From Eledone cirrhosa (taxonomy: Eukaryota), in the NCBI GenBank assembly GCA_964016885.1, contig OZ024740.1, forward strand, positions 128,278,001-128,342,000: DNA of 64,000 bases, in the 5' to 3' direction. The notes below the pieces were generated by a model. The model saw only the letters and a list, made by a program, of their open reading frames with translations. It was not told the DNA's origin and did not search any database. Positions 16,026 through 64,000 of the stretch are shown here, piece after piece. Both the position numbers and the translations under genes were made by a program. Every line of letters begins with the position of its first letter. Position 1 is the stretch's first letter.

Positions 16026-16030
<5 letters not shown>

Positions 16031-16241
16031 GAGGTTACACAAAAGTTAGTTCACCATACCGAGAACAATTGTTTCACCTTAGCGGATCTTTAGCTCGTAA
16101 TGGATGAGCTGAGGATCCGCTAAGGTGAAACAATTGTTCTCGGTATGGTGAACTAACTTTTGTGTAACCACTTCTACCTAACTCGTCCCATGGACTGAGT
16201 GCCCTACCACTATGGATATTAACTTCCAGTGTTCTACCACT
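16026..16241. mobile_element. Miniature palindromic derivative of the PLE at 50985-53700
   Basis: Right part matches 53565-53700, left part matches 50985-51063. Inserted in (TA)n. Confidence 0.9.
16105..16148 (+). ncRNA. Minimal type-I hammerhead ribozyme; mirror copy at 16054-16103(-) with mutated core CTAAAGA
   Basis: TGAG-CTGAGGA-TCCGCTAAGGT-GAAA-CAATTG-TT-CTCG, with palindromic stem III ACAATTGT. Confidence 0.75.
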
Positions 16242-16338
16242 ATATATATATATACATATATATATAGTCCAGAAATAGCCGTCGAAATGGCTTGAAGTCT
16301 GCCGTCGGGGTCATATTTTCTCCTATATATATATATAT

Positions 16339-17932
16339 AACCGGCACCACCCCTAGCAATTAACATCAGTAGCACACCTTACACCTCACATCTACACCCA
16401 TCTCTATACTCTAAAGATAATACTGACAGCATTTTAGTACCACCTATCCTGGGAATACCCCCTTGTACCTCTAATACTGATATCTCAACCGTGGACTACT
16501 TATTCTGCATTGCACAAATATAAGATTAGTATAAATTGGGGACACGGTACTGGTTGCGATAGCATAGTCCTGTGCATGGATTACCACCAAGAGATAGATT
16601 GATGATTAGATAGAAAATCGTATTATTATGTGAATATATACTGTAAGCGATCAGTTCAATGAATTATGCACGTAATCATCTTGATGTGAACTCCTTTAGT
16701 ACCTATTAATAGACTCCACTCTAGCTTGTAGATGTGATACATAATTGATTTATATTTCAGACGGGGGTTGTCTATTGCTTGATGGCCAGACTAGTGCATT
16801 TATATGAGAGATTGGATCTCCGGACCATACCGAAGATTTACTGGAGATGCAGGCATGCAATGACCCGGAGCCTACCGGGTGGCATATATAATAGTGGGAC
16901 CGTACCAGGTCCTACTGTTATATTACATTTGCATGGAGCAGTGACTTGAGAGTCTGACTCCTCTTATAGAACATTCAGATATGACACACCTTAATTAATG
17001 GATGGTAATCATCCTAATATATACACCCTTGTACTTCTTAATGGACAACTCTCTAACCTATAAATGGGTAACATACTCTAGATATTAGTTATAACTTCAC
17101 ATGATAGGCACGTATTTGAATCACCATTAATGTAGTTTAGGATAGTAATGTAACTAAGATAACTAGCTAGTTACCTCCCCTTACGCATTAATTCCCCTTA
17201 GTCATTCAGGCACTTCCGGAATCTGGACAGCATGATATATTAATTAAGAACCGACTGGATACGGTTTATAGCTTGACTATATGCTGAACCACCGCGAATT
17301 ATACGATAGACGCGTGTTCTCTATATATATTGCGTCTCATGGATTATGTGAGTGGTGGTGTGAGCAAGGACAGTGGTACGGCCTTGCCTACGATACAATA
17401 AGGTTTATAGTATGTTGAAAGTTTTTGATATTTTGGTGTTTCCCCGCATCCGAGACAGTATATCATACAGATGTATGAGAATAAATGACTTAATAATTCA
17501 GCCTACATAATAGATTACCTGCTTCAACTGCCTGACCCTGCAAATATCATTCTGACGCACTCTAATCATGTATAAATAAGACACGCGTGCATGCTACACG
17601 GGAGATTGTTTCATACACTGACTACTCTAAGCTTTCCTCTTGCTTTATCTTCATGGACTGCCAACGCTTCATGTTTATCTTTATTTTCACTCTTGTTTTT
17701 ATTTTATTTTTATCATGTAACCTTTATATGTAAATTGCCATGCTATATCATTTGATGAATGTCACCCCACTGTTGATCAATATGCGCATATGTTTTATGT
17801 GTCTCTTGGGTTGAAAAGGAGGTCAAGTATGTTATAGATCAGTAAATAGTTGCTCCGAAGAATCCAAACCTCGGTTTGGAGGAAACAATTGTAAGCAAAT
17901 AAATGACTTAAACTTAACTTTGATTACTGTAA

Positions 17933-17937
<5 letters not shown>
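16339..17937 (+). mobile_element. 1.6-kb ORF-less insertion between (TA)n tracts ending in hammerhead + AATAAA (probable PLE 3' region or non-autonomous element)
   Basis: More GC/CpG-rich than its flanks, bounded by (TA)n, with an HHR ~40 nt from the 3' end. Confidence 0.6.
17850..17898 (+). ncRNA. Minimal type-I hammerhead fold with a CCGAAGA core variant
   Basis: TTGCT-CCGAAGA-A-TCCAAACC-TC-GGTTTGGA-G-GAAA-CAATTG-TA-AGCAA, then AATAAA. Predicted cut after A17893. Confidence 0.78.
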
Positions 17938-17986
<49 letters not shown>

Positions 17987-18820: not shown

Positions 18821-20084
18821 TAATAATGCGGCATATAATCATTCTGAACATTATTAGACTAGTTTCTGAAGTCAAACATTATGGTTCTCTCTTCTATTTC
18901 AATTTTCTCTCTCTATATATATATAGTAGAATGATATTCCTTTAAAGCATCAAAGCATACAACATAAGGTACTCAATATATGAAGTAGAGAGGGTACTTA
19001 ATTTTATTTCATTTTGATATGACTTCTACAGGAATAGTTGTCTCATTCAGTACTGAAACCATCAGGAAAGCCTTTTCCCCAAAGAGATACTACTAGTCTT
19101 TTAGAAGCCATCATTAAATGGTATATATATATATATATATATGTATGAGAAAAAAAAATGAGGCATCACCTACACTATATATATAACAGATTGATATGCA
19201 TAATGTGTTTTAATTTGCATTGAAAATACTCCCACTCTCATTTCTTAAATACATGGTCAAAATTTGTGAGGGAGGTATGAAGACCATTGAACTGTACTTG
19301 CTGTATTATTTACCCTTCTTGTGGTATTTCATCTTGAAATTTGAATCCAAGATGAAAGTATCCAGACCATTTTAGGCTGCTGTTCTATCACAGATACCTC
19401 CTTCTTCTCCCCCCAACTGTTTAAACCTTTTGTTTGTGCATTTCTAATGAAATACAAACTATTTTAATTGATTAGTGAAAAACTTTGTGGGATCTCCTGA
19501 AAATATTATTTACTTCATTTCTAAAAAAAAACAATGCAATTTAATTAGAAACCCTTTAAAAATTGGTGGCTTCATTTCATAGAACCAGAACCAGTTTTTG
19601 CCGGTTGGCATGAAAAAGGTTAATGGTAAGTACCAAAATATTTCAGTCTATAAACATAGTAACAATGCGACCAAACTGGAGTTACATTACAATTCCAATA
19701 CATCTATAATATTTTGTAAAATGCATGAACATCATAACATCCCATTAACACTAAAATTAGATAAATAAATACCTCTCAAAATTCATACCTTTATGAGAGA
19801 ACAGAATTAAAGCTTCTTAAATTTGAATGAAACCTTTGAGTTTAGGTAGGACGGAAACTGAGAAGTCTTGAAATTGGTTTCTTTCCCCTAACCAAGTGAC
19901 AAATTAGGTAACCATCATTTCACATGTGACTTAAAACTATGTGTTATAAGAACCATACAGCTGTATCAACACAGCTAAGATCAACACCAACACACCTATC
20001 ACTGCCATTACCAATACAACACTAAGAATTTTAATATCTTTTAACTTGATAGAATATCAAGAAGTCTGTACAATGAAGTCAACA

Positions 20085-23702: not shown

Positions 23703-26469
23703 GCATTACATAATTTAAAGACAAGCATATACTGACGTTTAACCATTAATTATGAATAATAGAAATAGAGTTTTAAATTATCCAAGTTTAAACACAAAAC
23801 CTTTAATTGACATGAAACAATTGACAGAATAATAAAGCCACAATCATGAAGGTCACATAATTTATGAATATTTCAGAATGATGCATTTTAATATTTGATA
23901 CTATATTTCAACTAAGTAAGACAAACTATTAATGCCTATTTTATTACAACATAATATTTAGTGATGTAGAAATGAAAAAGCTTAATAGCACTTTCATGAT
24001 TGTATTTCTAATGAAATGCACTCTATTTCAATTTATTAATAAACAATTTTGAGGAATTTATTAAAATTATTATTTCATTAATACATAAGCTTCATATATC
24101 AAATGGTGTTGGAAGATTTTAATTTAAATAGGAACCCTTTAAAATGGGAGGTCTTTTTCATAAAGCCAGAGCTAGTTTCGGCTGAGTTGGTATGAGATAG
24201 GTTAGATATATGATTGAGAATTACCCTACTGCATAATGTTGAATAGACATTTTGAGCTATATTTGCTGGTGTTGGCTTTCTAGTTAATGTAAAGATCTTC
24301 AATGAAATAGTCTTCAATTCCCATCTTCCATCAGTGTTGCTACAAATTTCTACAGAAAGCATGGAACAATACATTCACTATTGGGTGATGTAGAACAGAA
24401 GAATTATTACAAACCATACATTTCTCAGAAAAATTAATGTCTACATTCAGTTCACTTGGAATCATAAAAACTGGGTGTTTTCAGACTACTCAACAAACAT
24501 CTGACAAGAGGAATTGATATTTTATTTCTATAGGGTCTGGTGGTTAAGTGTATATCTGCTGTTTATACAGGAAATGAATTTTGCAGAGAGTGCATTAATA
24601 TGACTCTTAAGAATGATTCTTCATCACAAGAATAATGAAAGAAATCATCAAGAGCAAGGAAATGCCAATGACCAACACAATCTCCAAATGAAATCTAATA
24701 GATAACAGAGGGAAACAGGCGAACATGAGTATTCACCAAAGAAAATCCAGAAACATGAGTTAATTCTATGATTATATGATGAAAGAACGAAAACAAATTA
24801 GAGATTATGTGGTGTTTGAAATTATAAATTCAATTTTTCATAGATGTGATTCTATTCTTAAACATTTTGGGTACCTGACTGAGTATTACTGCTATATCAT
24901 TTTATTGTTCTTGCTTTTTACTGCACATATTACATTTTGTTTGCAAAATAAAATATCTGCATTAAAAATTCTTAAATTAACTGAGGCTCAATTTTGTTGT
25001 GGAATTGCTTCTATCATTAATTACATTAGGCCCATTTAAAATCTTTGATCATTTTAAATATTGAAAAATAGACGTTTCCTATTCATATGTATTTTCACTT
25101 GTAAGTAATCAAATGAATATAGATGGCTAACTATTACTCAACAGTATATACTTGTCTTCAAATTAAGTGAAGCCATTATATACACATATGTGTTTGGGTG
25201 TGTATATATTTATATGTGTGTATATATATATAGTAATAATGATAAATTTGAAGACTAAAATCCAAACAGGTCTCGATAAGGATAAATATATATCAAATAT
25301 ATAAGAACCGTAGAGAAAATATTTATTAAAATAACAGATTAAAGTTTAAGCAAAGAATCGCTGCTTTCACCCTTAACGGATCTTCTGGCCGCAGAAGTAA
25401 ATATTTCAAAAAACGTTGCAACCAAAGGAAGACAGGAAGACGATACTTTGGTTCGTGGAAACGTTCCCTGTCAAAGAACGAAAAGAAACGAAGGTAATAA
25501 ATACGTCATAATTTGGTGCGGTGGAAACAATTACACACACAAAGACAAAACCACGTTTATGGTATAAATGAAGTTTATTAGGTGGCTCATGGAGACGTTC
25601 TCTGGCAATGAACGGAAAAAACGAAGATAATACGTCATTATGTGGTGCAGTGAGAACAATTACACGCAACGACAAAACCACGTAAATGGTCTGACTGAAG
25701 TCGTAGACTAAAATTCTATACAGGAAAGCGAATGATTCTCGGCTTCAGAGTTAAGAATAAAGTAAATAAAATACAGAGGTAATTGAAATTAGATATATAC
25801 ACACACGCATCCATATACGTACGTACACAAGCATACGCGAAAACACTCGCCATGGGTATGCAAATACAAGCACGTACACAAAAAAAAACACACGCACGCG
25901 CATACAGCGGTGGCGTGATTATGGGCACCAGCGATTCTGCGGAGGTTACTGATCTTATCACATACCACGTGTGCGTACCCGCACACATACCAACGTATAC
26001 ACCAAATACACATAAACATATATATTAAAATATATATATATATGTGTGTGTGTGTGCATGTATACATAATATATATAAATATACACACATAAATACGTAT
26101 ATAACGCGCGCGCACACGTACGTACATGTAAATATACATATGTTCGCGGACGTACGTCAACCAAAACACAAAGTACACATATACACACACCCAACATGCG
26201 TACGAACCCGCATACTCACACAGACGCAAAACTCACGTATACACATAACTAAATGCACATGTACCAGTATATATATTATATATGCCATAACATATACAAA
26301 CAAATATACGTACGAGAAAGTATACGTACCTTCACAAAACATACATGTAATATATACTTACCTACACAAATAAGTAATGGTATAAACAGAACAAATACTT
26401 AGCTACCACATCAAGACCTAAAATATCCGCGTATAGTTCGTATTATCCATTAGGGTATAAAGTGGGGCT

Positions 26470-27700
26470 GTAATACAGGAAGGTTTTGTGCAATCTATGT
26501 TTACAAGCCGAAATTGCCTCAGATTTTTTGTTTAAGATGTGGTCTTTGGCGTAGTGTATTTCCAGGCCCTCAGCGGCGCAGAGGTCACTGGTCTTTTATT
26601 TCCGTTATACGATCTAGCTCAAGCTAGGATTCCCAGTGTAACTTATATTGGGTGTGGTTGTCTTTTAGACTCCAGATATAAGCTGAAAGTGACGTCATAT
26701 TCCTTCTTAATGAGCTAAGAAAAGAATGGGTATGCATGTAAAGACGCTTCTTAAATCTATTGGCGGTTAACACTTTGTAGGCCCTACGGGACGTGGATGT
26801 TTCTACCTTACATTTGTAGACAATGTTACTAGAGGGGCATTTCCCGGATAGGGGGCAATCAACCCGATTCCTACAATTACAGTTAGTATTAGCTACAGGG
26901 TTGCACGTGTTCCTACGGCTAGGTAATTTAGCTAAATTTGAAGCTGTGATGTTATGTGCAATGTTAGGAGTCGTAGAGTAAGAAATGTTAATGGTATTTC
27001 TATTTAAAATGTTACAATATTTATGTGCTGGGTGGAAATGCTTCATAATAAGGGAGAGAAGGATCGTAGCTAATGGTGTGGTCAGCTCCATATTATATGG
27101 TGGGTTATACCATATAATGCGTCGGGATCTATTTTTCCTAGGTCTATTCTCGTACTCTGTATACGCTACCTCATCGACAAATCCACTCCGAGCAAGAGCT
27201 TCATCGTAATATGAGGAATGGTCGTTGAAAAAATATGCTCGTTTGTAGATAGACGGGAAAGCCTCAAAGAAACGTTTCTTACCAGGTTCTTGGTTATGCT
27301 GGCAGGATAGTTAGAATGCTTACTTATGTAATTAAGCGTATCATTCGGCTTTCCATACGGGTAGTGCAAGCCATTCGACAAATTTGAGGGTAACGTCGAG
27401 GCAATTAACGACCGAGAGGTTGTCCTCAACCTGTATGGAGAGGTGGAAGCCTTTAAAGAAGGCTGTGAGTTCTTTTCTGAACCTGTCGCAAGCACGTGGG
27501 CCGCACTTTGTCATGGTCAAAAGACCGTCATCACTGTACAAACCACCGCCTACGGTGGGGAATTCTTCCTTGATAGAGAAAAGAAGGAAAAGGCCGATAA
27601 GGTCAGTAACCTCCGCAGAATCGCTGGCGCCCATACTCACGTCAAATGGGGTACTATTATATTTTTTAATCCAAATAGAGTCGTCTAAATTAATTACCGA
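26470..27700 (-). pseudogene. PLE reverse transcriptase plus GIY-YIG endonuclease, frameshifted
   Basis: FDVSMGASDSAEVTDLIG, GLYSDDGL, VNCLDVTL, KPNDTLNYISKHSNYP, NCNCRNRVDCPLSGKC..NIVYKC. Confidence 0.9.
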
Positions 27701-27940
27701 CTTCCCTTCATTGCCAGAGAACGTCTCCATGAACCACCTAATAGAATATTAGTCTACGACTTCATTTATACCATAAACGTGGTTTTGTCTTTGCGTGTAA
27801 TTGTTTCCACCGCACCAAATTATGACGTATTATCTTCGTTTTTTCCCCGTTCTTTGCCAGGGAACGCTTCCACGAACCAAAGTATCGTCTCCCTGTCTTC
27901 CTTCGGTTGTAACATTTTTGAAATATTTACTTTTGCGTTC

Positions 27941-28016
27941 ACAGATTGATCTTTTTAGTTTCAGGAGATCGCATTAAGAGTGAAAGCAGCGATTCTTGGC
28001 TTAAACTTTAATCTGT
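27941..28016 (+). ncRNA. Hammerhead-topology motif of PLE family B with non-canonical core CAG(A/G)AGA
   Basis: Stem I AGTTT/AAACT with distal ACAGATTGA/TTAATCTGT; GAAA at 27982-85; stem III AGC/GCT. The copy at 2513-2567(-) shows CAGAAGA-TCCC-GTTAA-GGGT-GAAA, and 25334-25387(-) is the same with one C fewer. Confidence 0.5.
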
Positions 28017-28027
28017 TATTTTAATAA

Positions 28028-28078
<51 letters not shown>

Positions 28079-28182
28079 TTAATCTGTTATTTTAAATGTT
28101 TGTTCAATGTTTCTTATATATTTGATATATATTTATCCTTATCGAGCCCTCTTTGGATTTTAGACTTCACATTTGTTATTAT

Positions 28183-28232
<50 letters not shown>

Positions 28233-37206: not shown

Positions 37207-39006
37207 GAGAGTGAACATAGCTAAGACAAAGTGTTGATAAGTGGAAGAGAGGACAATACTCCGATTCCATCAGGGAAATGGCCATGTTCGATATGTAGGA
37301 AAGGAACTGGCATGAATTCCATAAAATGTACGCAATGCAGATCTTGGGTACACAAGAGATGTAGTGGGATAGCAGGCAAACTCTTCTCTCTCTTGGTTGT
37401 CCATCGTAAATGATGATGACATCTTCTTTATTGTTGTTCCCGTCTGCTGTGGGCAGGAAGGTGGCTGTGGAGGCTGATCCTTGATTTGCAGGTCCGGGGA
37501 CAGTGGGAGCAAAGGAAGAGACCGGAGTCAGACTGGCAACTCCCAGAGGTTACATTCACCTCGCGCCCATCACCGCAGGGCTTTGGGAGTGCACGCTAAA
37601 GAAGAAACCTGTGCGGGGAAAGGTTTATAGTCGGAGGGCCAGTGCAAAGTGATGGTCCCACTCACTCGGCCACAGAAGCCAGAATCTGGTGGTATGGAGG
37701 ACCGTCACGACCAGGCACTTCCTTGGCTGCAGTGGATGGCCACGACGTCTGTAGTGCCTTGCCATGCCCTAGCGCTCCACACCGCTTGCTGTCACTGCCT
37801 TTGTGACTGTTGGGACGATATTGTCCTGCTCCACTCACTCTGCCGGGTCCAGTCTTTGCATGCAGGGGCAGGCATCCCCTATCTAACTCACAAGAAGCTG
37901 TAGCCGCTGTCGCATGCTACAGCTTCTTGTGGCCACTGGTGAGAGCTGAGTGTCAGGTGGTACCCAATGCAGAACAAGCTGTCCTGAAAAGGGCATGGCT
38001 AGCCCTCCGTACAGAGGTACATGCCCCTCCCTGACACCCTAGGCATATACACACGCATATACATACACATACATATGTACATGTGTATATACATATTTAC
38101 ACATTTTTGGATGGCCGTTGACTCTTATGAGTTCTTCCGCCCTTTTGTCAGGTTTTATTTTTTGTCCTGCAGGGTGTCTAAAATCACCCTTTTCACCAAG
38201 TAAACTTGGTGGGGTTGCCAGTTTAGTCACGGAACGACCATGTGATAGGTTGTACTGGTTTACATGTTATCAGTAGCACTCAATAGTGAGCAGGAAACTA
38301 ACAGGTAGGGAAAACTACATATGCAGTAGATGTACAGGGAAAGTTGGCAGTATTAATCGCAGTGATAGACATATTTTCCAATGCTGGTGGGTTCTATAGA
38401 AGTGGTTGATAGCTTCCGGTACTTAGGTGACCAGATTAGCATGGGAGGGGGGGGGGGTTCTGAGGCTATAGTATCTAGAATAAGGACGGGTTGGAAGAAG
38501 TTTAGGGAGCTGCTTCCTTTGTTGACAAAGAAAGGTTTCTTCCTGCGTACGAAAGGACAGTTATATGATGCCTGTCTGAGATGCGCGATGATGCATGGTA
38601 GTGAGACATGGACAGCAATTGCAGAGGATATGGTTGAGAGAAATGAAGCAAGTATTCTCCGTTGGATGCGCAATATCAATGTGCATGAACGAGTTGAGAA
38701 AGAAACTGGGTATAAGAGGGATAAGTTGTGGTGTGCAGGAGAGAAGGCTGAGATGGTATGGACATGCGATGCGCATGGAGGATGACTGCTGGGTAAAGAA
38801 ATGCCAAGAAATACCAGTAGAAGGAAGACTCAGTAGAGGTAAACCATGTAAAACATGGGTGGAGGTGGTGAGAGCAGACCTCGGGTCGCTGAAACTCACC
38901 GAGGAGATAACGAAGGACCGTGACAAGTGGAAAGATGCTGTGCTGAATAGGACCCGTCCAACCCTTGCAAGCAGGCAAAAGCAGATGTAAGATGATGATG
39001 ATGACG
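37207..39006 (+). mobile_element. 5'-truncated RTE-type LINE split by a 0.9-kb insertion
   Basis: 37207-37382 and 38289-39006 join into the sequence seen uninterrupted at 63240-64000(-). (GAT)n tail. Confidence 0.92.
37383..38288. mobile_element. Unclassified GC-rich insertion with target-site duplication
   Basis: Flanked by AGCAGGCAAACT (37371-82) and AGCAGG-AAACT (38289-99). Confidence 0.7.
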
Positions 39007-39645
39007 AATAGTATATAACAATGAACAATGAAGAACCAAAAAGTTTGCATCACATTTATTAATCTAACTGATATAAACAAAAAGTCTAACAAATCAAATG
39101 GAGTGGATGAGACAGTTTTCTCAATGTCCCCTGTAGCAATTATAGTGATAAGTCTTTGAGATGCTGATTCAGACCATGGTCCTTTATTGATGTTAATGTT
39201 ATTGTTAACTTCTTGAACAGCTCTCAAGCAGACAGATGGCCAACTTTTTCCATTTGTGATCACGAGTTTTAATATTCATATCTAGTAAATCTAGGTCATC
39301 AACTAATGCGCCTACCTTTTTTTAACACAGTAGGATGTGTTGGAGTATACATGTCTGATATGTCAATCATGTTGTGTATCCTTTCAGAAGTTTTCTTTGA
39401 CTCATGAATATATATATATATATAAGGTAAGTTATTCCGGGTTGAATCGGAGGTAACCACAGTAAGTAAGGTACTCAATACATAGCAGAGTATAACAATT
39501 CCTGATAATTTCTAAAGAATGAAACAGTTCCAGCCCTGTAGAATCTCATCTATATTATATATATATATATAAATATATATATAATCATTTTACCCTCGCT
39601 ATTCCATACAGCTATATATATTATTATAGTTCTTTAGCAATAATA

Positions 39646-47989: not shown

Positions 47990-50482
47990 TATAGACCTAT
48001 AGGCAGGAGGAGAGTAACATGGTGATGGAATAGTAAGGTGGAGGAGTAAATCAAGGCCAAAAAGCAGGCTTGGAAAGTATGGCGGGATGGGGGAAGTAGA
48101 GAACACTATCAAATGGCCAGGAGAGAAGCTAAGAGACAAGTGTACTTTAAAAGAAGGGAAGCAGAGGAAAGAAAGTTCAAGCATGTTCTACAACGCGAGG
48201 ACCAACAACGTGATGTGTTCAGGATTGCAAGACAATGTGTTAAGTAAAACCGTGATATTGTTGGGGAGAGATGTGTCCATAATGGTGATGGTGTACTTGC
48301 CATCACTGATGCTGATAAGAAGGTAGCTTGGAAGTGTCACTATGAGAGCCTACTAAAAGAGGAGAATAAATGGGAAAAAGATAGCCTGCCCCAAATAGTC
48401 TAAATGAGGAGAATAAATGGGAAAAAGATAGTCTGCCCAAGCAGTGCAAGTTGAAGGTAGTATAATAAGGCAATCAAAGATATGAAGACAGGCAAGGCAG
48501 CTGGGCCTTTGGAGATAGTTGCTGAAATGCTGAAAGCATCTGGAATGGTGGGACACACTATGGTCACCCGGATAGTAAACCAAGTCATACAGAATGGGGT
48601 CATACCAAATGACTGGCGTAGCAGCATCATTATTAACTGCTACAAGGGATGCCATAGATAGGGGAAACTATAGAGGCATTAAATTAGTTGACCAGGTCAT
48701 GAAGGTCACAGAAAGAGTTATAGCGCAACTAATCAGAGAGCGAATTGATCTAGATGAAATGCAGTTTGGGTTTGTGTCAGGTAAAAGTACCACAGACACT
48801 GTTTTCCTTGTATGACAACTACAGGAGAAGTACCTAGCTAAAAGTAAACCCTATATTTAGCTTTTGTCATTTGGAGAAAGCCTTTGACAGAGTCCCCCGC
48901 TCCATTATCTGGTGGGCTCTTAGAAAACTAGGTGTTCATTAATGGCTTGTGAGAGCTATACAAGCCATGTATAAAGATACAGTCAGCAAGGTTAGAATTA
49001 ACAATAAATATAGGAAAGAATTTAGCATAAAAGTTGGTGTCGATCAAGGCTCTCTCCTTAACCCCTCCTATTTATTATTACCCTTCAGGATATAACATAT
49101 GAGTTTAAGAATGGCTGCCCATGGGAACTTCTATACGAAGGTGATATAACTCTTATAGCTGAATCGATGGCTGAAATAGGGAAGAAATTCCAAACATGGA
49201 TGCATGGCCTAGAATCAAAAGTGCTTAAAGTTAACTTGTCTAAGACTAAAGTTCTAGTATGTAGAAAGGAAAGTAGGGCACAGGTACCCTATGGGAAATG
49301 GCAATGCTCAGTGTGTAGGAAAGGAGTAGGCAGAAATTCCATTTTATGTCCCAAATGCAAAAGATGGGTACGTAAAAGATGTAGTGGGATCACAGGTAAG
49401 CTATCTAAGAACGTAGATTTTATATGTGGCCGATGCTCAGGTGCAATAAGTAGCAAGTTCCCACAGGATACTATCTCCTTCTATTGCCCAGATCGTTCTA
49501 TAGAAATAGTGGACACTTTCCGTTACCTAGGTGACAAAATCAGCTGTGGTGGAGGGTGCTCTGAAAGTACAGTAGCCAGAGTCAGAACGGGATGGAAAAC
49601 GTTCAGATAGCTTATACCACTATTGGCCACTAAAGGTTTCTCTCTAAAAATGAAAGGCAATTGTATGATGCCTGCATACGAACAGCAATGTTACATGGCA
49701 GTGAGACATGGGCATTGTGTGCAGAGGATCTGCGCAGACTGGAGAGGAACGAAGCATGCATGCTCTGCTGGATGTGTAATATTTGCGAATGGAAAAGCAT
49801 AAATGAACTAAGTGAGAAATTAAGAATGAATAAGAGGGATCAGATGTTGTTTACTCGAGAGAAGACTACGTTTGTATGGTCATGTGATGCGTATGAAAAC
49901 ACCATTTGTATAAAAAAGCGCAGGGCGATCAAAATTGATGGAAGTTACGGAGTAGGTAGACCCAGAAAAACCTGGGAGAATTTGATAAATTCTGACCTTA
50001 CACACTTACACCTCTCTAAAACAATGTCACTGGATAGAGATCTTTGGTGCTACGGAGTAATACAGAAGACCCGCCTTGCCTATGTACAAAGCGATACCTA
50101 CAGTCAGTAGGCACCTCTTAACCAAATATACATCCCCATCCACTACCCCTACTCCACCCCACTCCCATCAACACCCTTTCACTCTAAAGTTATGTTGGTA
50201 CCACAACATCCAGTCCAAAATAAATGAGGTTGTGTAGGTGTCAGGACAAAAATCACACAGTCCACGCTGCATTGTGGTCGTGTAGGTAGCACGGTAAAAA
50301 CCTCCCAGTCGACACTATAAACGTGGTTGTTGTTAGGAAGGGCATCCAGCCGTAGAAAACCTGCCAGACAGTCCTATACAAGAGAGACATGGTCACCCGA
50401 CCAATCTTGCCTCAAGTGGGACAATTCCCGTCTAAACCCATGCTAGCATGAAAGATAGACGTTAAACAATGATGATGATGAT
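47990..50482 (+). mobile_element. RTE-type LINE, longest copy (RT, PHD-like finger, 3' UTR, (GAT)n tail)
   Basis: NYRGIKL, QFGFVSGKSTTD, LEKAFDRVP, WQCSVCRKGVGRNSILC, FRYLGD, LHGSETW, GRPRKTW. Several stops and frameshifts. Confidence 0.95.
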
Positions 50483-50519: not shown

Positions 50520-50930
50520 TGTTTTGAAGAACTCATTATTGTTACGAGCTCCATTTCATTTGGGATGTTTTCTAGTGTTATGGCTGTAATATGGAGAGTG
50601 TAAATAGATCGAAAAGAGTTGAAATCAGTGTTGTAGCATATGTACAAACTTTATTTGTATATTTCAATTGTTTCGATCAGCTCCAGATACAATCAAGATG
50701 ACGGGGCCCAACTTTTTTTAGACATATCATCAGATATGTGAACTTATATGTGCAAAGATGTGTTTAGATGTATCTTTGCACATATAAGTTCACATATCGG
50801 ATGACACGTCTAAAAAGAGCTGGAACCTGTCATTTTGATTGTATCCTGAGCTGATTGATATCAAAACAACTGTAATATACAAATAAAGTTTGTACATATG
50901 TTGCAACATCGACTTTGACTCGTTTACATC
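50520..50930. mobile_element. Older non-coding palindrome (IR ~50616-50921 plus left tail) with two degenerate head-to-head hammerheads
   Basis: - arm: ATAT-CTGATGA...GAAA-CAATTG-AA-ATAT (50659-50737). + arm: ATAT-CGGATGA...AAAA-CAACTG-TA-ATAT (50794-50878). Both are followed by AATAAA. Confidence 0.7.
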
Positions 50931-51012
50931 TATCCATCTATCTATTTATCTATCAATACACACACATGTATATATATATATATATAGAAGTGGTTACACA
51001 ACAGTTAGTTCA

Positions 51013-51062
51013 CCATACCAAGAACGATTGTTTCACCTTAGCGGATCCTCAGCTCGTAATGG
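51013..51062 (-). ncRNA. Hammerhead ribozyme in the inverted pseudo-LTR
   Basis: Reverse complement: CCATTACGAG-CTGAGGA-TCCGCTAAGGT-GAAA-CAATCG-TT-CTTGGTATGG. Confidence 0.75.
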
Positions 51063-51454
51063 ACATGGTTATACGGAACAGGAAGGAAAACCGTATGAAG
51101 ACGCTTGTGTAGAAACGGTCACTTCACTCAGGCAATACTATATTGCCGGCGAGAGGTGTAAGGGAGATAACTGCGAAAGTCCGAAAGTTTCTAGTTGATA
51201 AGAAAATTAGGATGTTGTTGTAATTCAATCCGGAGCTTTGTAGTTATGTAAGAGGTGCTTCCAGACGTGTGGACAACGTGTGAAGAATTCATTTCTCGTG
51301 TTTAGGCAATCCCCATTGCGTAATCTCTTTAGAATATTTGTTCGTTCATCAATACATAGTCCACACGATGGATTGCCCCTTGCGTATGGCTTGGACTTAG
51401 TGATGGCTTTCCATTGAATGGAGTAGTTTATACTTGAGTCCTTGAGGGACCATA

Positions 51455-53395
51455 ACACTTTCAACCTGAAATCGAGAGACTAGCCTCCTAAGGTAACTGA
51501 ACTTGCTCCTTTCGAGGTGGACCTTCTTGACTTAGTCGCTAACATTTCCTTTCGCAAACACCCTAACACCTTTCAAACTAAACTTAGAAATGATATTAAG
51601 AAATTTAGGTCTTCTAATAACACTTTCGTTCTTTCCGAGAAAACTAATAAAATTTACGAAGTCCACAACACCACTTTCCGCCACTTGACTCATAACGCTA
51701 TTACTTCCAAATATAAGAAAGCTAACCCTATTGCCTATCACGACATTAATACAGAAGCCAAAGAACTTGCCGCCGCCCTTAAGGTAGATAAGAAGCTACA
51801 ATCTCTAGCTAAGCGGGAGGCGTTCCTCACACTGAAAGATCACAAGGTAGACTTTACTTCTAACCCCACACGTAGACTAATAAACCCGGCACGCACAAAT
51901 ATGGGACTAGTCAGTAAGGCCATACTTAGAAACATAGTTAAGACCATTAGGACCAAGTCCAACCTGCCCCAGTGGGAGAACAGCGACTCCGTAATTAAGT
52001 GGTTTAACTCCTTCAAATACAAAAAAGCGAAGTTCACAGTTGATTTTTACCCGTCGATCTCAGAGACCCTGTTAAACAAAGCATTGGACTTTGCTAGTAC
52101 TTACACTACCGTCGATGGTTTAGACAGGGAAATCATCGCTCACTGCCAGAAAACCCTCCTCTTCAACAACGGAGTAGCCTGGGCAAAGAAGTCAACAAGT
52201 TCAGACCTATTCGCTGTCTCCATGGGATCGTTTGACAGTGCTGACGTATCTGACTTGGTTGGCCTATTTATTTTAGACATATTACGTGTTAGATTCCCGG
52301 ACTTCCACACGGGAATATACTGCGACGATGGATTGATCTTATCGAGCCATAAAAGTGCTCATGATGTCGACCAGTTTAAAAAAGACAGCTTCTACCTTCA
52401 ATGAGTTAGGACTTAGGATAACAGTCGCTACCAACCTCTCTAGCGTAAATTTCTTACACATTAATTTAGACATTCACACACACACATAGAGAACCTTCAA
52501 TAAGCTAAACGAAAACTCAATTACATTCACAAGGACTCATGCCACCCTCGCACTGATTTTAGAAACTTCGTAAATGATATCAGTACTAGAATCTCAAACC
52601 TCCCCTCTAATAAGGCTATCTTTGACAAGGCGGCACCCTACTATAACACGGCATTAGCTAACAGCAGCTTCTCACACCCTATCACTTACTCTCCCACTAA
52701 CAACAACAGCAATAAGAAAAGAAAGCGTAACAATAGAAAAAACTATCTGGTTGTCTCCTCCCTTCTCACTCAGCGTTAAAACCAATGTAGGCAAAACATT
52801 TTTAGCCCTCTTAGATAGACACTTTCCCATAGGTCATAAATACTGTTCCATCTTTAACCGACACAAAGTAAAACTAGGATACTCCTGCGCTAAGAATATG
52901 AAGACCCACATCACCAACAGCCCTAAGAACAACACCCCACCAGGGAGCTCTTGCCGTAAGCCCGAAGATTGTCACCTTCAACAGCAATGCAACACACACG
53001 CTGTAGTTTATAAAGCTGTGGCCACTTCCAACTGACCAAATCAACCACAGGAGGTCAAATCCTATGTGGGTATGGCGGAGGGCCGATTTAAGGAACGCTT
53101 CCTGAACCACCAGTCGACCTTTGGGTACCCGGACAGACGTTCATCCATGAAACTCGCGAGCCACGTATGGTCCCTCAAGGACTCAAATATAGACTACTCC
53201 ATTCAATGGAAAGCCATCTCTAAGTCCAAGCCATATGCAAAGGGCAATCCGTCGTGTGGACTATGTATTGATGAACGAATACATATTCTAAAGAGATTAC
53301 GCAAAAGTGATTGCCTAAACACGAGAAATGAATTATTCACACGTTGTGCACACGTCTGGAAGCACCTCTTACATAACTACAAAGCTCCAGATTGA
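51455..53395 (+). pseudogene. PLE RT plus GIY-YIG endonuclease ORF with a few frameshifts and stops
   Basis: TLKDHK..RLINPA, VDFYPSISE, SMGSFDSADVSDLVG, GIYCDDGL, VVYKA..YVGMAEGRFKERFLNH, CGLCIDE, LNTRNELFTRCAH. Confidence 0.95.
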
Positions 53396-53557
53396 ATTAC
53401 AACAACATCCTAATTTTCTTATCAACTAGAAACTTTCGGACTTTCGCAGTTATTTCCCTTACACCTCTCGCAGGCAATTTAGTATTGCCTGAGTGAAGTG
53501 ACCGTTTCTACACATGCGTGTTCATACGGTTTTCCTTCCTGTTCCGTATAACCAAGT

Positions 53558-53607
53558 CCATTACGAGCTGAGGATCCGCTAAGGTGAAACAATTGTTCTC
53601 GGTATGG
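53558..53607 (+). ncRNA. Hammerhead ribozyme in the PLE pseudo-LTR
   Basis: Stem I CGAG/CTCG extended by CCAT/ATGG; CTGAGGA at 53568-74; GAAA at 53586-89; palindromic stem III; predicted cut after T53597. Confidence 0.82.
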
Positions 53608-54053
53608 TGAACTAACTGTTGTGTAGCCATTTCTACATAACTCGTCCCATGGACTGAGCGCTCTACCACTACGGATATTACCTTCCAGCATTCTACCACT
53701 ATATATATATATTTTTTTTCTTTTCTTTTTTCTTTTCACTTCTTAAACCTTGTTTGTATATAACATTATTCTTTCTGCACCTTCTGTTTAACATGTGCGA
53801 CACCACACTAATACATTCCACTATCATTTGATAATGCATATAAATGCTGAAACCGGTAATAGACAATAATTAAATATATAAATAGATAAATAAATGCCAT
53901 TGTTAAATAATAAATAAATCAACTAATACCTTAACACTTCACACAAAGTAAAACATTTCATTTCAATCATTTTCTAACCCAGAAAATAGAGAGAGAGAAA
54001 CAAAAAAGGAAAAAAAAATATTTTTCTTCCTCATAATCATCTCTTTCTCCCTG

Positions 54054-61636: not shown

Positions 61637-63093
61637 ATAAAGTAAAAGTTGGTGTTCATCAGGGCTCCGTTCTTAGCCTCCTACTATTTATTATTGCCCT
61701 TCAGGCTATAACAGTGGAGTTCAAGACCGGTTGCCCATGGGAACTCCTATACGCAGATGATCTAATGCTCATAGCTGAATCAATGGCCAAACTAGAGAAA
61801 AAATTCCAAACGTGCAAGCATGGCCTAGAATCAAAAGGCCTTAAAATTAACCTGTCTAAGACTAAAGTTTTAGTTTGTAGGAAGGAAAATAGGGCGCCGG
61901 TCCCATCCGGGAAATGGCCATGCTCAGTGTGTAGGAAAGGAGTAGGTAGAAACTCCATTTTATGTCCCAAATGCAAAGTATGGGTGCATAAAAGATGTAG
62001 TGGGATCACAGGTAAGCTAACTAAGAACATAGATTTTATATGTGGCCGGTGCTCTGGTGCAATAAGTAGCAGCAAGTGCCCACAGAATACTAGCTCTTTG
62101 AATTGCACAGATGGTTCTATAGAAATAGTGGACAGCTTTCATTACCTGGGTGACAAAATCAGCAGTGGTGGAGGGTGCTCTGAAAGTACAGTAGCTAGAG
62201 TCAGAACTGGATGGAAAAAGTTCAGAGAGCTAATACCACTATTAGCCGCTAAAGAGTTCTCCCTAAAAATGAAAGGCAGGCTGTATGATGCCTGCATATG
62301 AACAGCAATGTTGCATGGCAGTGAGACCTGGGCATTGTGTGCAGAGGATATACGCAGACTAGAGAGGAACGAAGCTTGCATGCTCCGCTGGATGTGTAAT
62401 AGTAATATACGTGAACAGCAAAGCATAAACGAACTAAGGGAAAAATTAGAAATAAGAGGGATCAGATGTTGTTTACTCGAGAGAAGGCTACGCTGGTATG
62501 GTCACGTGATGCGCATGAAAGACGACAGCTGTATAAAAAAGTGCAGGGCAATAAAAATAGACGGTAGCCACGGAGTAGGCAGACCCAGAAAAACCTTGAT
62601 AAATTCCGACCTCACACACTTACACCTCCCCAAGACAATGTCACTGGACCGAGATCTTTGGCGCTACACAGTAATAGAGAAGACCTGCCTTACCTAAATA
62701 CAAAGTAAAACCTACTACAGTCAGTAGGCATCTCTAACAAAATACACCCCCGTCCCACTACCCCCACCCCATCCACACCACCCCTTTCAATGTAAAGTTA
62801 TGTTGGTACCACAACATCCAGGCCGAAACAAATGAGGTCGTGTAGGTGTCACGACAAAAAAACATTCACAGTCCATGCTGTAATGTGGCCGTGTAGGTAA
62901 CATGGTAAAAACCTCCCAGTTCCACACTGTAAATGTGGTTGGTGTTAGGAAGGGCATCCAGCCATAGAAAACCCGCCAGACAGTCCTATGCGAGCAAGAC
63001 AACCACTCTTGTCTCAAGTGGGAAAACTCCCTTCCAAACCCATGCAAGCGTGGAATATGGGCGTTAAACGATGATGATGATGATGATGATGAT
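61637..63093 (+). mobile_element. 5'-truncated RTE-type LINE, relatively intact, close relative of 49030-50482
   Basis: GVHQGSVLS, LLYADDL, PHD-like finger, FHYLGD, LHGSETW, RLRWYGHV, 3' UTR and (GAT)n. Confidence 0.95.
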
Positions 63094-63229
63094 AAACAAG
63101 AAGTGTAAGTCAAAAGGTTAAGCTTAACTTTGTTTATTTATATTTGCTGTTATATATATTTTGGTGATAATCCTTATTGCGTGAAAAACTGGACATAAAA
63201 TGGGTAATATAATGATGATGATGATGATC

Positions 63230-64000
63230 ATCATCATCATATTATGTCCGCTTTTCCCTGTTTGATGGGGCGGGATGGGTCTTATTCAGCACAGCATCTC
63301 TCCACCTGTCACGGTCCTTCGTCATCTCTATCGTGAGCTTCAGCAATCTGAGGTCTGTTCTCATCATCTCCGCCCATGTTTTTCGTGGTCTACCTCTACC
63401 ACGTCTTCCTTCAACTGGCATTTCCTGGCACTTCTTTACCCATCGGTCATCCTCCATGTACATCACATGTCCATACCACCTCAGTCTCCTCTCCCGCACA
63501 CTACATTCTATCCCTCTGACACAGTTTCTCTCTCAACACATTCATACTGGGACGTTCACGCACATTGACATTGCATATCCAACGAAGCATGCTTGCCTCA
63601 TTTCTCTCCAGCCGTCGCATATTCTCTGCAGTTGTCTCACTACCATGCAGCATTGCGCTCCTCACACAGGCATCATATAACTGGCCTTTCGTACGCAGGG
63701 AGAAACCCTTCTTCGTCAGCAGAGCAAGCAGCTCCCTAAACTTCTTCCAACCTGTCCTTATTCTAGATACTATGGCCTCGGACCCCCCCCCCCCTCCCAT
63801 GCTAATCTGATCTCCTAGGTACCGGAACTTATCCACCACTTCTATAGCACCCGCCTGCATTTGAAAAATGTTTCTATCAATGCGTCTTCTACTGTCTAAT
63901 TTCCCTGTACATCTACTGCATACGTATTTCTCCCTACCTGTTAGTTTGCCTGCTATCCCATTACATCTCTTGTGTACCCAGGATCTGCATTGTGTGCATT
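63230..64000 (-). mobile_element. RTE-type LINE 3' part, running off the window edge
   Basis: VDKFRYLGDQI..GWKKFRELL..RLRWYGHV..GRPRKTW; tail-to-tail with the previous copy. Confidence 0.93.

Follow-up and report, generated by a model that had tools for sequence, protein, structure and literature searches.

The window analysed here, a stretch of 64 kb, contains at positions 16028-16240 a miniature palindromic insert of 213 bp with a (TA)n tract on either side (15979-16027 on the left and 16241-16254 on the right). The first-pass annotation had reported this insert with a size of 215 bp; the insert itself stands, the length does not, and the TA-ambiguous flank explains the gap. On the left lies an inverted arm of 77 bp (16028-16104, minus strand), the reverse complement of positions 53557-53633 of a larger element, hereafter element A, ending at the inner terminus; on the right lies a direct, tailed arm of 135 bp (16106-16240, plus strand), equivalent to 53565-53699 of A. 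The two arms differ at three of 69 sites and are separated by one junction base (16105), for which both predict C, and from this we infer a microhomology of 1 nt that would have undergone a C>T mutation afterwards. The direct arm carries a type I hammerhead (16105-16142, plus strand; pattern scan, core at 16109, predicted cleavage after 16138) in the Hydra-clade layout, as matched by eye to File S2 of PMC8557442; its stem II has just 2 bp and the junction cuts the 5' part of its stem I. The hammerhead copy in the inverted arm (16060-16104, minus strand) has a catalytic core with two substitutions, the conserved G5 among them (G>A at the positions equivalent to 53570 and 53572 of A), and is not caught by the strict pattern scan. 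Thus, of the "hammerheads" previously attributed to the insert, the direct-arm core holds, while the inverted-arm one is an altered copy. The arm alignment defines a tail of 66 nt running from the inner to the outer terminus (16175-16240, plus strand), in which a hairpin, H1 (16181-16205, plus strand), starts 4-6 nt after the inner terminus and comprises a 4-bp outer stem, a 4-bp inner stem, a 1-nt 3' bulge and a conserved 5-nt 3' box. The insert has no ORF, promoter region, leader or second hairpin (H2), and its RNA is predicted to fold into a single long hairpin (-138 kcal/mol, z -20). Because it lacks H2, ORF and leader, and because this fold would bury the ribozyme, the miniature, of which the 64-kb window holds one copy, is probably inert. 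That it derives from a PLE we regard as practically certain.

Element A is a 5'-truncated, decayed Hydra-type PLE of 2,713 bp (50987-53699, plus strand) lying between (TA)n tracts, and its start is 34,959 bp from the miniature; it is the 2.7-kb element that had been described as lying about 35 kb away. It begins with an inverted arm of 468 bp without tail (50987-51454, minus strand), the reverse complement of 53166-53633, from which it differs by 24 mismatches; since the arms of the miniature and of A differ at 3/69 and 24/468 sites, both insertions are old. A broken coding region for an RT plus a GIY-YIG-type domain at the C-terminal end follows (51455-53395, plus strand), with stops and frameshifts, from which about the first 68 residues are missing, as is the entire leader. 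Downstream are the hammerhead (53564-53601, plus strand; pattern scan, core at 53568, predicted cleavage after 53597), the tail of 66 nt (53634-53699, plus strand), with seven differences from that of the miniature, and H1 (53640-53664, plus strand), whose closing pair is mismatched in this copy. At 53631-53637 and 53691-53697, the two termini of family A are embedded in similar sequences of 7 nt with a distance of 60 nt between them, which hints that a tandem duplication may have given rise to the tail unit of this family.

The assignment of A was based on motifs, hammerhead layout and best matches. In tblastn searches four relatives cover the RT, and three of them the endonuclease too, over 51457-53392, giving a PLE-type RT followed by a GIY-YIG region; the features of EN+ PLEs are also present, that is, an inverted 5'-truncated copy, a one-sided tail and a type I hammerhead near the 3' end. 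The target-site duplication of the miniature and of A is unreadable within the (TA)n tracts. A protein search found 463 longer relatives, the listed ones being mostly about 700 aa long with 39-53% identity; the best matches of A are 37-53% identical, and the named ones come from Hydra vulgaris, Watersipora, Acropora millepora, Apostichopus japonicus and Elysia. The motifs DKT, RWK and CxCX5C are given as marks of the Hydra clade in PMC8557442. Among the 120 relatives listed out of the 463, DKT occurs in 111 and DKG in seven (A reads EKT), RWK occurs in 82 (A lost the region by truncation) and the CxCX5C linker in 102; in the linker of A the last two Cys have the right spacing and the first is replaced by Ser, and element B of the window has all three. 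The CxxC and CxH around the catalytic E and N are both kept in A, which also shows the Hydra-clade traits of a length below 3 kb, insertion into (TA)n and a canonical hammerhead. Pfam gave no match on the two PLE ORF pieces of the window, and on six relatives a single GIY-YIG match, below threshold; Rfam gave no match in the 64-kb window at the gathering score. Element A is thus, on its sequence features, a probable Hydra-clade PLE, and the miniature a truncated insert of the same family. Identity with the published Hydra-1_Obim was considered and rejected, since the hammerheads differ by eye, and family A is accordingly another family.

The two insertions share both termini, as had been claimed. 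The 13-mer at their start is found at 16028 and 50987 on the plus strand and at 16162-16174 on the minus strand (0.17 expected by chance); the 9-mer at their end is found at 16232-16240 and 53691-53699 and at one further site (37036), which was rejected as a third terminus, its context being unrelated; both inserts are flanked by (TA)n. Moreover, the direct arm of the miniature is 93% identical to A across 148 bp (E 3e-58). The inverted arms were said to stop at the same base, and indeed in both the last base corresponds to 53633, which lies 36 nt beyond the site of hammerhead cleavage; as TA follows, the end could also be placed up to 2 nt further on (53633 to 53635). The direct arms both extend to +102, so that the tail of about 65 nt noticed on the direct arm only measures 66 nt by arm alignment, or 64 nt with the TA assigned to the element. 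The probability that a free breakpoint coincides by chance in the miniature and A, the two copies of family A, both in the 64-kb window, is about 0.006-0.02. The idea that hammerhead cleavage creates a terminus was rejected, since the arms cross the cut site and end at +36 and +102.

The junction behaves differently. The arms had been described as meeting immediately upstream of the hammerheads, which is right for the miniature, where the junction lies upstream of the cores, by 3 nt in the tailed and by 11 nt in the tail-less arm, and wrong as a rule: the tail-less arm of A extends 402 nt upstream of the core, and in a further palindrome of the window (D) 152 nt separate the cores. Indeed, the arms reach 3, 9, 11, 14, 54, 117, 402, 660, 1431 and 2113 nt, and a junction fixed at the hammerhead was therefore rejected. 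The single informative site of family A (53618) clusters the arms by insertion, not by arm type, which is consistent with a palindrome made at each insertion, as far as one site goes. Fixed ends with a variable junction recur in families B and C of the window and in Hydra-type loci of other genomes, the junction differing in every head-to-head insert compared. The proposal that the ends are fixed while the inversion point varies is thus supported by families A, B and C and by these loci, though it is mostly published; the link between non-coding palindromes and PLE retrotransposition is likewise supported, though largely known already.

The surroundings of the miniature (15508-17964) form a nest of PLE-type inserts parted by (TA)n tracts, one microsatellite having been targeted repeatedly. 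Besides palindrome D (about 15526-15961), which is hammerhead-like with extra sequence on one side, the nest includes a diverged solo arm of family C (16267-16324; 47/58) and a (TA)n-bounded segment of 1.6 kb (16340-17936) ending in a variant hammerhead, whose core at 17855 has C in place of U4 and which is located 43 nt ahead of the tract. The latter gave no match with Hydra proteins, and it is possibly a non-autonomous PLE or captured DNA. The miniature of family C (1142-1381) has identical arms (59/59) and stops at the same base as the diverged solo arm; about five imperfect repeats of the last 10 nt of its inverted arm occupy its centre (1200-1243), suggesting repeated primer realignment at the junction. 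In addition, the solo arm (16267) and the direct arm of the family C miniature (1245) start at their 5' ends within about 1 base of each other in diverged copies, and some 5' stops may be non-random. Family B, of Hydra type, is represented by an element that is truncated at its 5' end and has an inverted arm, by a fragment with tail, by a solo copy cut off at the hammerhead core and by a 100-bp miniature (25229-28030, 28073-28185, 2410-2567 and 3098-3198); its tail is about 90 nt long, four tailed ends fall at one position and two tail-less ends lie within 6 nt. Palindromes E (50604-50933, adjoining element A) and F (1638-2037) are older, with degenerate hammerheads and one-sided extensions; in F, a partial hairpin motif lies 6 nt beyond the end of the tail-less arm. 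Another PLE family is represented by two short inserts between (TA)n tracts (39424-39556 and 18926-19122, approximate; minus strand), in which stem III is hammerhead-like and the tail has a hairpin at 49-52 nt from the tract. Between (TA)n tracts at 699-1616, a 57-bp unit occurs six times, nearly identical and in both orientations, with one pair fused head-to-head (1408-1513); they may represent inserts consisting of the tail alone, or else an error of assembly. Several LINE copies in a state of decay, in which a Cys-rich PHD-like region comes after the RT, were also observed (49028-50482, 61643-63084, 38289-39004 and 63228-63954).

A scan of genome contigs with a 42-sequence alignment confirmed 14 Hydra-type loci (L001-L014) among 108 candidate stretches. 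The assemblies in which they lie are prokaryotic GTDB representatives, a single one of which contains seven of the 14, and the loci are likely to be animal DNA from host contamination. They show the same picture: arms are inverted, miniature palindromes with hammerheads cluster in (TA)n, and each family has two termini separated by about 60-70 nt; the clustering seen in the window at 15508-17964 is found in L006, L009 and L013. In one element of L006 both arms end at +31, and the tail is therefore optional. Moreover, two 5' ends fall at H1, that of a full-length element (L007, 4851-4960), which yields a tail-length terminal direct repeat, and that of a tail-only insert starting just before H1 (L013, 2503-2581), as if transcription started, or a roadblock stood, at this position. 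One element of L013 matches the published Hydra-2_Amil by eye.

It is in the tails of these loci that the hairpin motif was first spotted by eye. An outer stem of 4 bp, in most cases GCUC/GAGC, is combined in it with an inner stem, a 3' bulge of 2 nt and a box of 5 nt that is conserved. In all five loci of other genomes with an intact ORF start, two such hairpins lie between the hammerhead and the ATG, 65, 62, 68, 63 and 68 nt apart, H2 being located 38-49 nt before the ATG and just 3' of the outer terminus. A pattern search for second copies gave 34 matches against 17.6 in shuffled sequences; since so loose a pattern also matches by chance, 20 hairpins were picked by context, and overlapping and context-free matches were omitted from the alignment. 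In its 20 rows, 94% of the cells pair and 28 cells are changed on both sides; none of 500 shuffles was as good and slid controls reached 23-48%, the shuffle tests disregarding relatedness among loci that represent, by our estimate, about seven independent lineages. The inner stem's first three pairs, which the search pattern left free, are Watson-Crick in 18/18, 13/18 and 15/18 of the copies outside family A, the first of them being C-G in 11 and U-A in seven; the two family A rows were omitted from this count because the bulge of their H1 is 1 nt instead of 2 nt, so that two of the 20 rows break the register. Covariation was used as the test because folding energy is uninformative, the inner part beating shuffles in two of the 20 hairpins (p<=0.05).

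Other searches for the motif gave a mixed picture. A covariance model recovered nine of the 14 loci below E 0.01, all of them in the training set or duplicates; in the window, a short insert bounded by (TA)n gave one new site (E 6e-5), and the tails of families B, D, E and F gave none. By eye, family B has only the 3' half of the motif, with a gap of 9-16 nt. Of six published Hydra consensus sequences inspected by eye, one of which lacks the regions concerned, four have the hairpin: Hydra-1_Ajap in two copies about 61 nt apart, Hydra-1_Crog in two copies with variation, Hydra-2_Ajap and Hydra-2_Amil in one copy each. The leader of the published Hydra-1_Obim, read by eye, contains no complete hairpin, and the anole RNA drawn in Fig. 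S1 of PMC11167929 shows no such motif by eye. No Rfam family matches the tail or an intact leader; a permissive scan gave sub-threshold matches only (snoR100, mir-876 and throat-1), which were taken as chance and rejected as the identity of the hairpin.

A terminus was considered testable when, beside the copy that stops there, another continues past the point and allows comparison, at least seven others, including that of the window element at 17855, being without such a copy; all 15 testable termini sit 4-8 nt before a hairpin and 14 of them 4-6 nt before it, ten being inner ends that precede H1 and five outer ends that precede H2. As each end lies 4-8 nt upstream of its own hairpin, tail length equals hairpin spacing. 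In the miniature and in A the gap between the inner terminus and H1 is 4 nt, or 6 nt with the TA counted as target. H2 falls outside both copies of family A, for which the outer-end rule is a prediction; we think it reasonably probable that the family has an H2, and we would give much the same credit to the idea that the hairpins set the start sites. The rule, which would be a new and testable addition, appears well supported across Hydra-type elements and half-shown for family A, as far as comparison of sequences can tell. The literature covered, which takes in no figures and little of the subscription journals, of Repbase Reports and of the older work on Penelope, gave no account of paired leader hairpins, of a 62-68 nt Hydra tail, of the arm-geometry argument or of PLE inversions being caused by priming on two strands. 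The word "hairpin" has no mention in the main text of PMC8557442, and paired hairpins are absent from the text, figures apart, of its supplement.

How, then, might the miniature have arisen? The reading that we favour, and hold to be somewhat better than an even bet, is that of a one-off, doubly 5'-truncated insertion of A's family, produced by two target-primed reverse transcriptions at one (TA)n; that it was made at insertion by two primings seems to us quite probable. The template would be a read-through (tandem) or circular RNA in which H1, H2 and the beginning of the ORF come after the 3' UTR and the hammerhead. It must have been uncleaved or re-ligated, because the arms read through the hammerhead cut site, and the arms look the same for an uncleaved and a re-ligated circular template. 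An RT anchored on each hairpin would begin 4-8 nt upstream of it, with a nicked strand of the target as its primer, the TA at the end of that strand pairing with a UA of the RNA; each of the two opposite target strands would supply one primer. The cDNA started at H2 would carry the tail and that started at H1 would not, so that under this scheme tail length would equal hairpin spacing. Both cDNAs would stop early at variable points, their ends being joined through 0-3 nt of microhomology or filler.

The arm geometry bears directly on the main competing explanation, according to which a cDNA folds back (or an antisense RNA primes itself), the PLE endonuclease resolves the product at a fixed site and the motif is a DNA recognition or cleavage signal. 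Folding back of a tailed cDNA demands that the tailed arm be the longer one. This is so in A, in L005 and in one insert of L006 (7018-7310), and the opposite is true of the miniature (11 against 3 nt) and of another insert of L006 (7710-8122; 117 against 54), while the arms of the family B miniature do not overlap at all and have no sequence in common. Since either arm can be longer and the arms may not overlap, two independently primed cDNAs are favoured over fold-back; a central deletion afterwards could mimic some of this geometry. Antisense self-priming has, for its part, been proposed in PMC3846280 and endonuclease-mediated resolution, for the tail, in PMC8557442; the Drosophila endonuclease requires the tail for cleavage (cited in PMC11167929), and the full-length element of L007 and the tail-only insert of L013 begin at H1, as a cut site could cause. 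Against a DNA signal, the covariation across the 2-nt bulge and four cells of G-U type on the sense strand point to a single-stranded sense RNA, and sense RNA is the template in vitro (PMC11167929). On balance we find fold-back unlikely, with perhaps one chance in a handful.

A second possibility is that the miniature is the remnant, by internal deletion, of a longer head-to-head insertion, from which it would have inherited its ends, so that its junction would be uninformative on reverse transcription. Long palindromes lose their centres, the arms of the miniature, differing at 3/69 sites, are old enough for secondary change, and nothing in the window dates the junction. Yet a deletion product of A itself is disfavoured by the one site at which both arms of the miniature share an allele absent from both arms of A, young miniatures with near-identical arms exist (59/59 in family C; 94/95 and 82/85 in L006), and the fixed ends would stay unexplained, the question being simply moved to the parent. 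We consider this explanation improbable. Still less credible is membership of an amplified non-autonomous family, MITE-like or retrozyme-like, with ends copied from one master: the miniature retains a hammerhead and H1, trans-mobilisation is conceivable and tandem non-autonomous PLE derivatives have been reported (bioRxiv 10.64898/2026.07.22.740005), but there is one copy in 64 kb, junctions differ among all the head-to-head inserts compared, the H2 that the tailed copy would need under the best model is absent, and the RNA folds at z -20. MITE-type inverted repeats at both extreme ends were sought and a 66-nt unpaired tail was found at one end, while the head-to-tail tandem units of a non-LTR retrozyme are replaced here by head-to-head arms.

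Returning to the two primings at one (TA)n, a more speculative step would make the two RTs the halves of one dimer, a suggestion to which we give slightly less than an even chance. The broader picture, equally tentative and a little short of evens in our judgement, would be that of a clade-wide duplicated leader hairpin acting as a molecular ruler, on which the two halves of an RT-endonuclease dimer dock and start copying 4-8 nt upstream from opposite target strands. If this were true, this single arrangement would account for the tail, equal in length to the hairpin spacing, and for both fixed termini, as well as for head-to-head inversions, for miniature palindromes and for why a tandem or circular template is needed; a cis-element of about 25 nt would set where the insert begins. 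In any case, the terminus rule makes the origin of PLE tails and inversions experimentally addressable, and many small non-coding palindromes in (TA)n tracts become classifiable as PLE debris. The motif also helps to define the true ends of Hydra-clade consensus sequences, the published 3' ends of which lie 30-48 nt from the hammerhead cut in ten of 24 cases and 88-153 nt from it in 11.

Among known systems, twin priming of LINE-1 is one in which two target strands prime two cDNAs, leading to an inversion with a variable junction; there the second priming site is variable and the arms do not overlap, whereas here both starts are fixed and the arms usually copy the same RNA.

For PLEs, an inverted 5'-truncated copy with a one-sided tail is typical (PMC8557442; PMC3846280), and the origin of these inverted repeats and tails is named an open question in PMC8557442 and PMC11167929. 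Since the RTs of PLEs form the sister group to those of telomerase (PMC8557442), an anchor in the RNA that determines where copying starts is of interest for RT evolution. The Hydra-clade EN+ PLEs (Craig et al. 2021, PMC8557442) are, like family A, short, with a C-terminal endonuclease, (TA)n targets and the same hammerhead layout, and Penelope-13_HM is listed there with a 5'-truncated inverted copy, as in family A; the tail of 66 nt differs from the 30-40 bp given for PLEs in the same source. The Penelope of Adineta vaga (Arkhipova et al. 2013, PMC3846280) shares the head-to-head inverted repeat, a one-sided tail (31 bp) and palindromic junctions, which were explained by antisense self-priming, whereas here the arm geometry favours two primings. 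In Schistosoma, pairs of minimal hammerheads on opposite strands, 100-700 bp apart and with a palindromic loop 3, were interpreted as truncated PLEs (Cervera and De la Pena 2014, PMC4209133). Non-LTR retrozymes (bioRxiv 10.64898/2026.07.22.740005) are also short, non-coding, hammerhead-bearing PLE derivatives, and they form head-to-tail tandem arrays, unlike the head-to-head palindrome described here.

The closest likeness is with PAc, the Poseidon element of Anolis carolinensis (Frangieh et al. 2024, PMC11167929). In vitro, both target strands were nicked and extended from two internal starts, and the tail was mapped to the span between these RT start sites; RNA 3' of the start sites was required, uncleaved RNA was used and a dimer was predicted (PMC11167929). 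Thus, PAc and family A have in common two fixed starts that bracket the tail, an AT-rich target, the extension of both strands (by two primings, in our reading of family A) and a template that passes through the hammerhead cleavage site. They differ in that the start sites of PAc lie inside the ORF, within one AC-rich stem-loop, whereas those of family A and of the Hydra type fall in a non-coding leader and would have a hairpin each. The available text of PMC11167929, in which the word "inverted" appears once, for a primer block, gives no explanation of inverted copies, and it is for these that two primings from the fixed starts would account.
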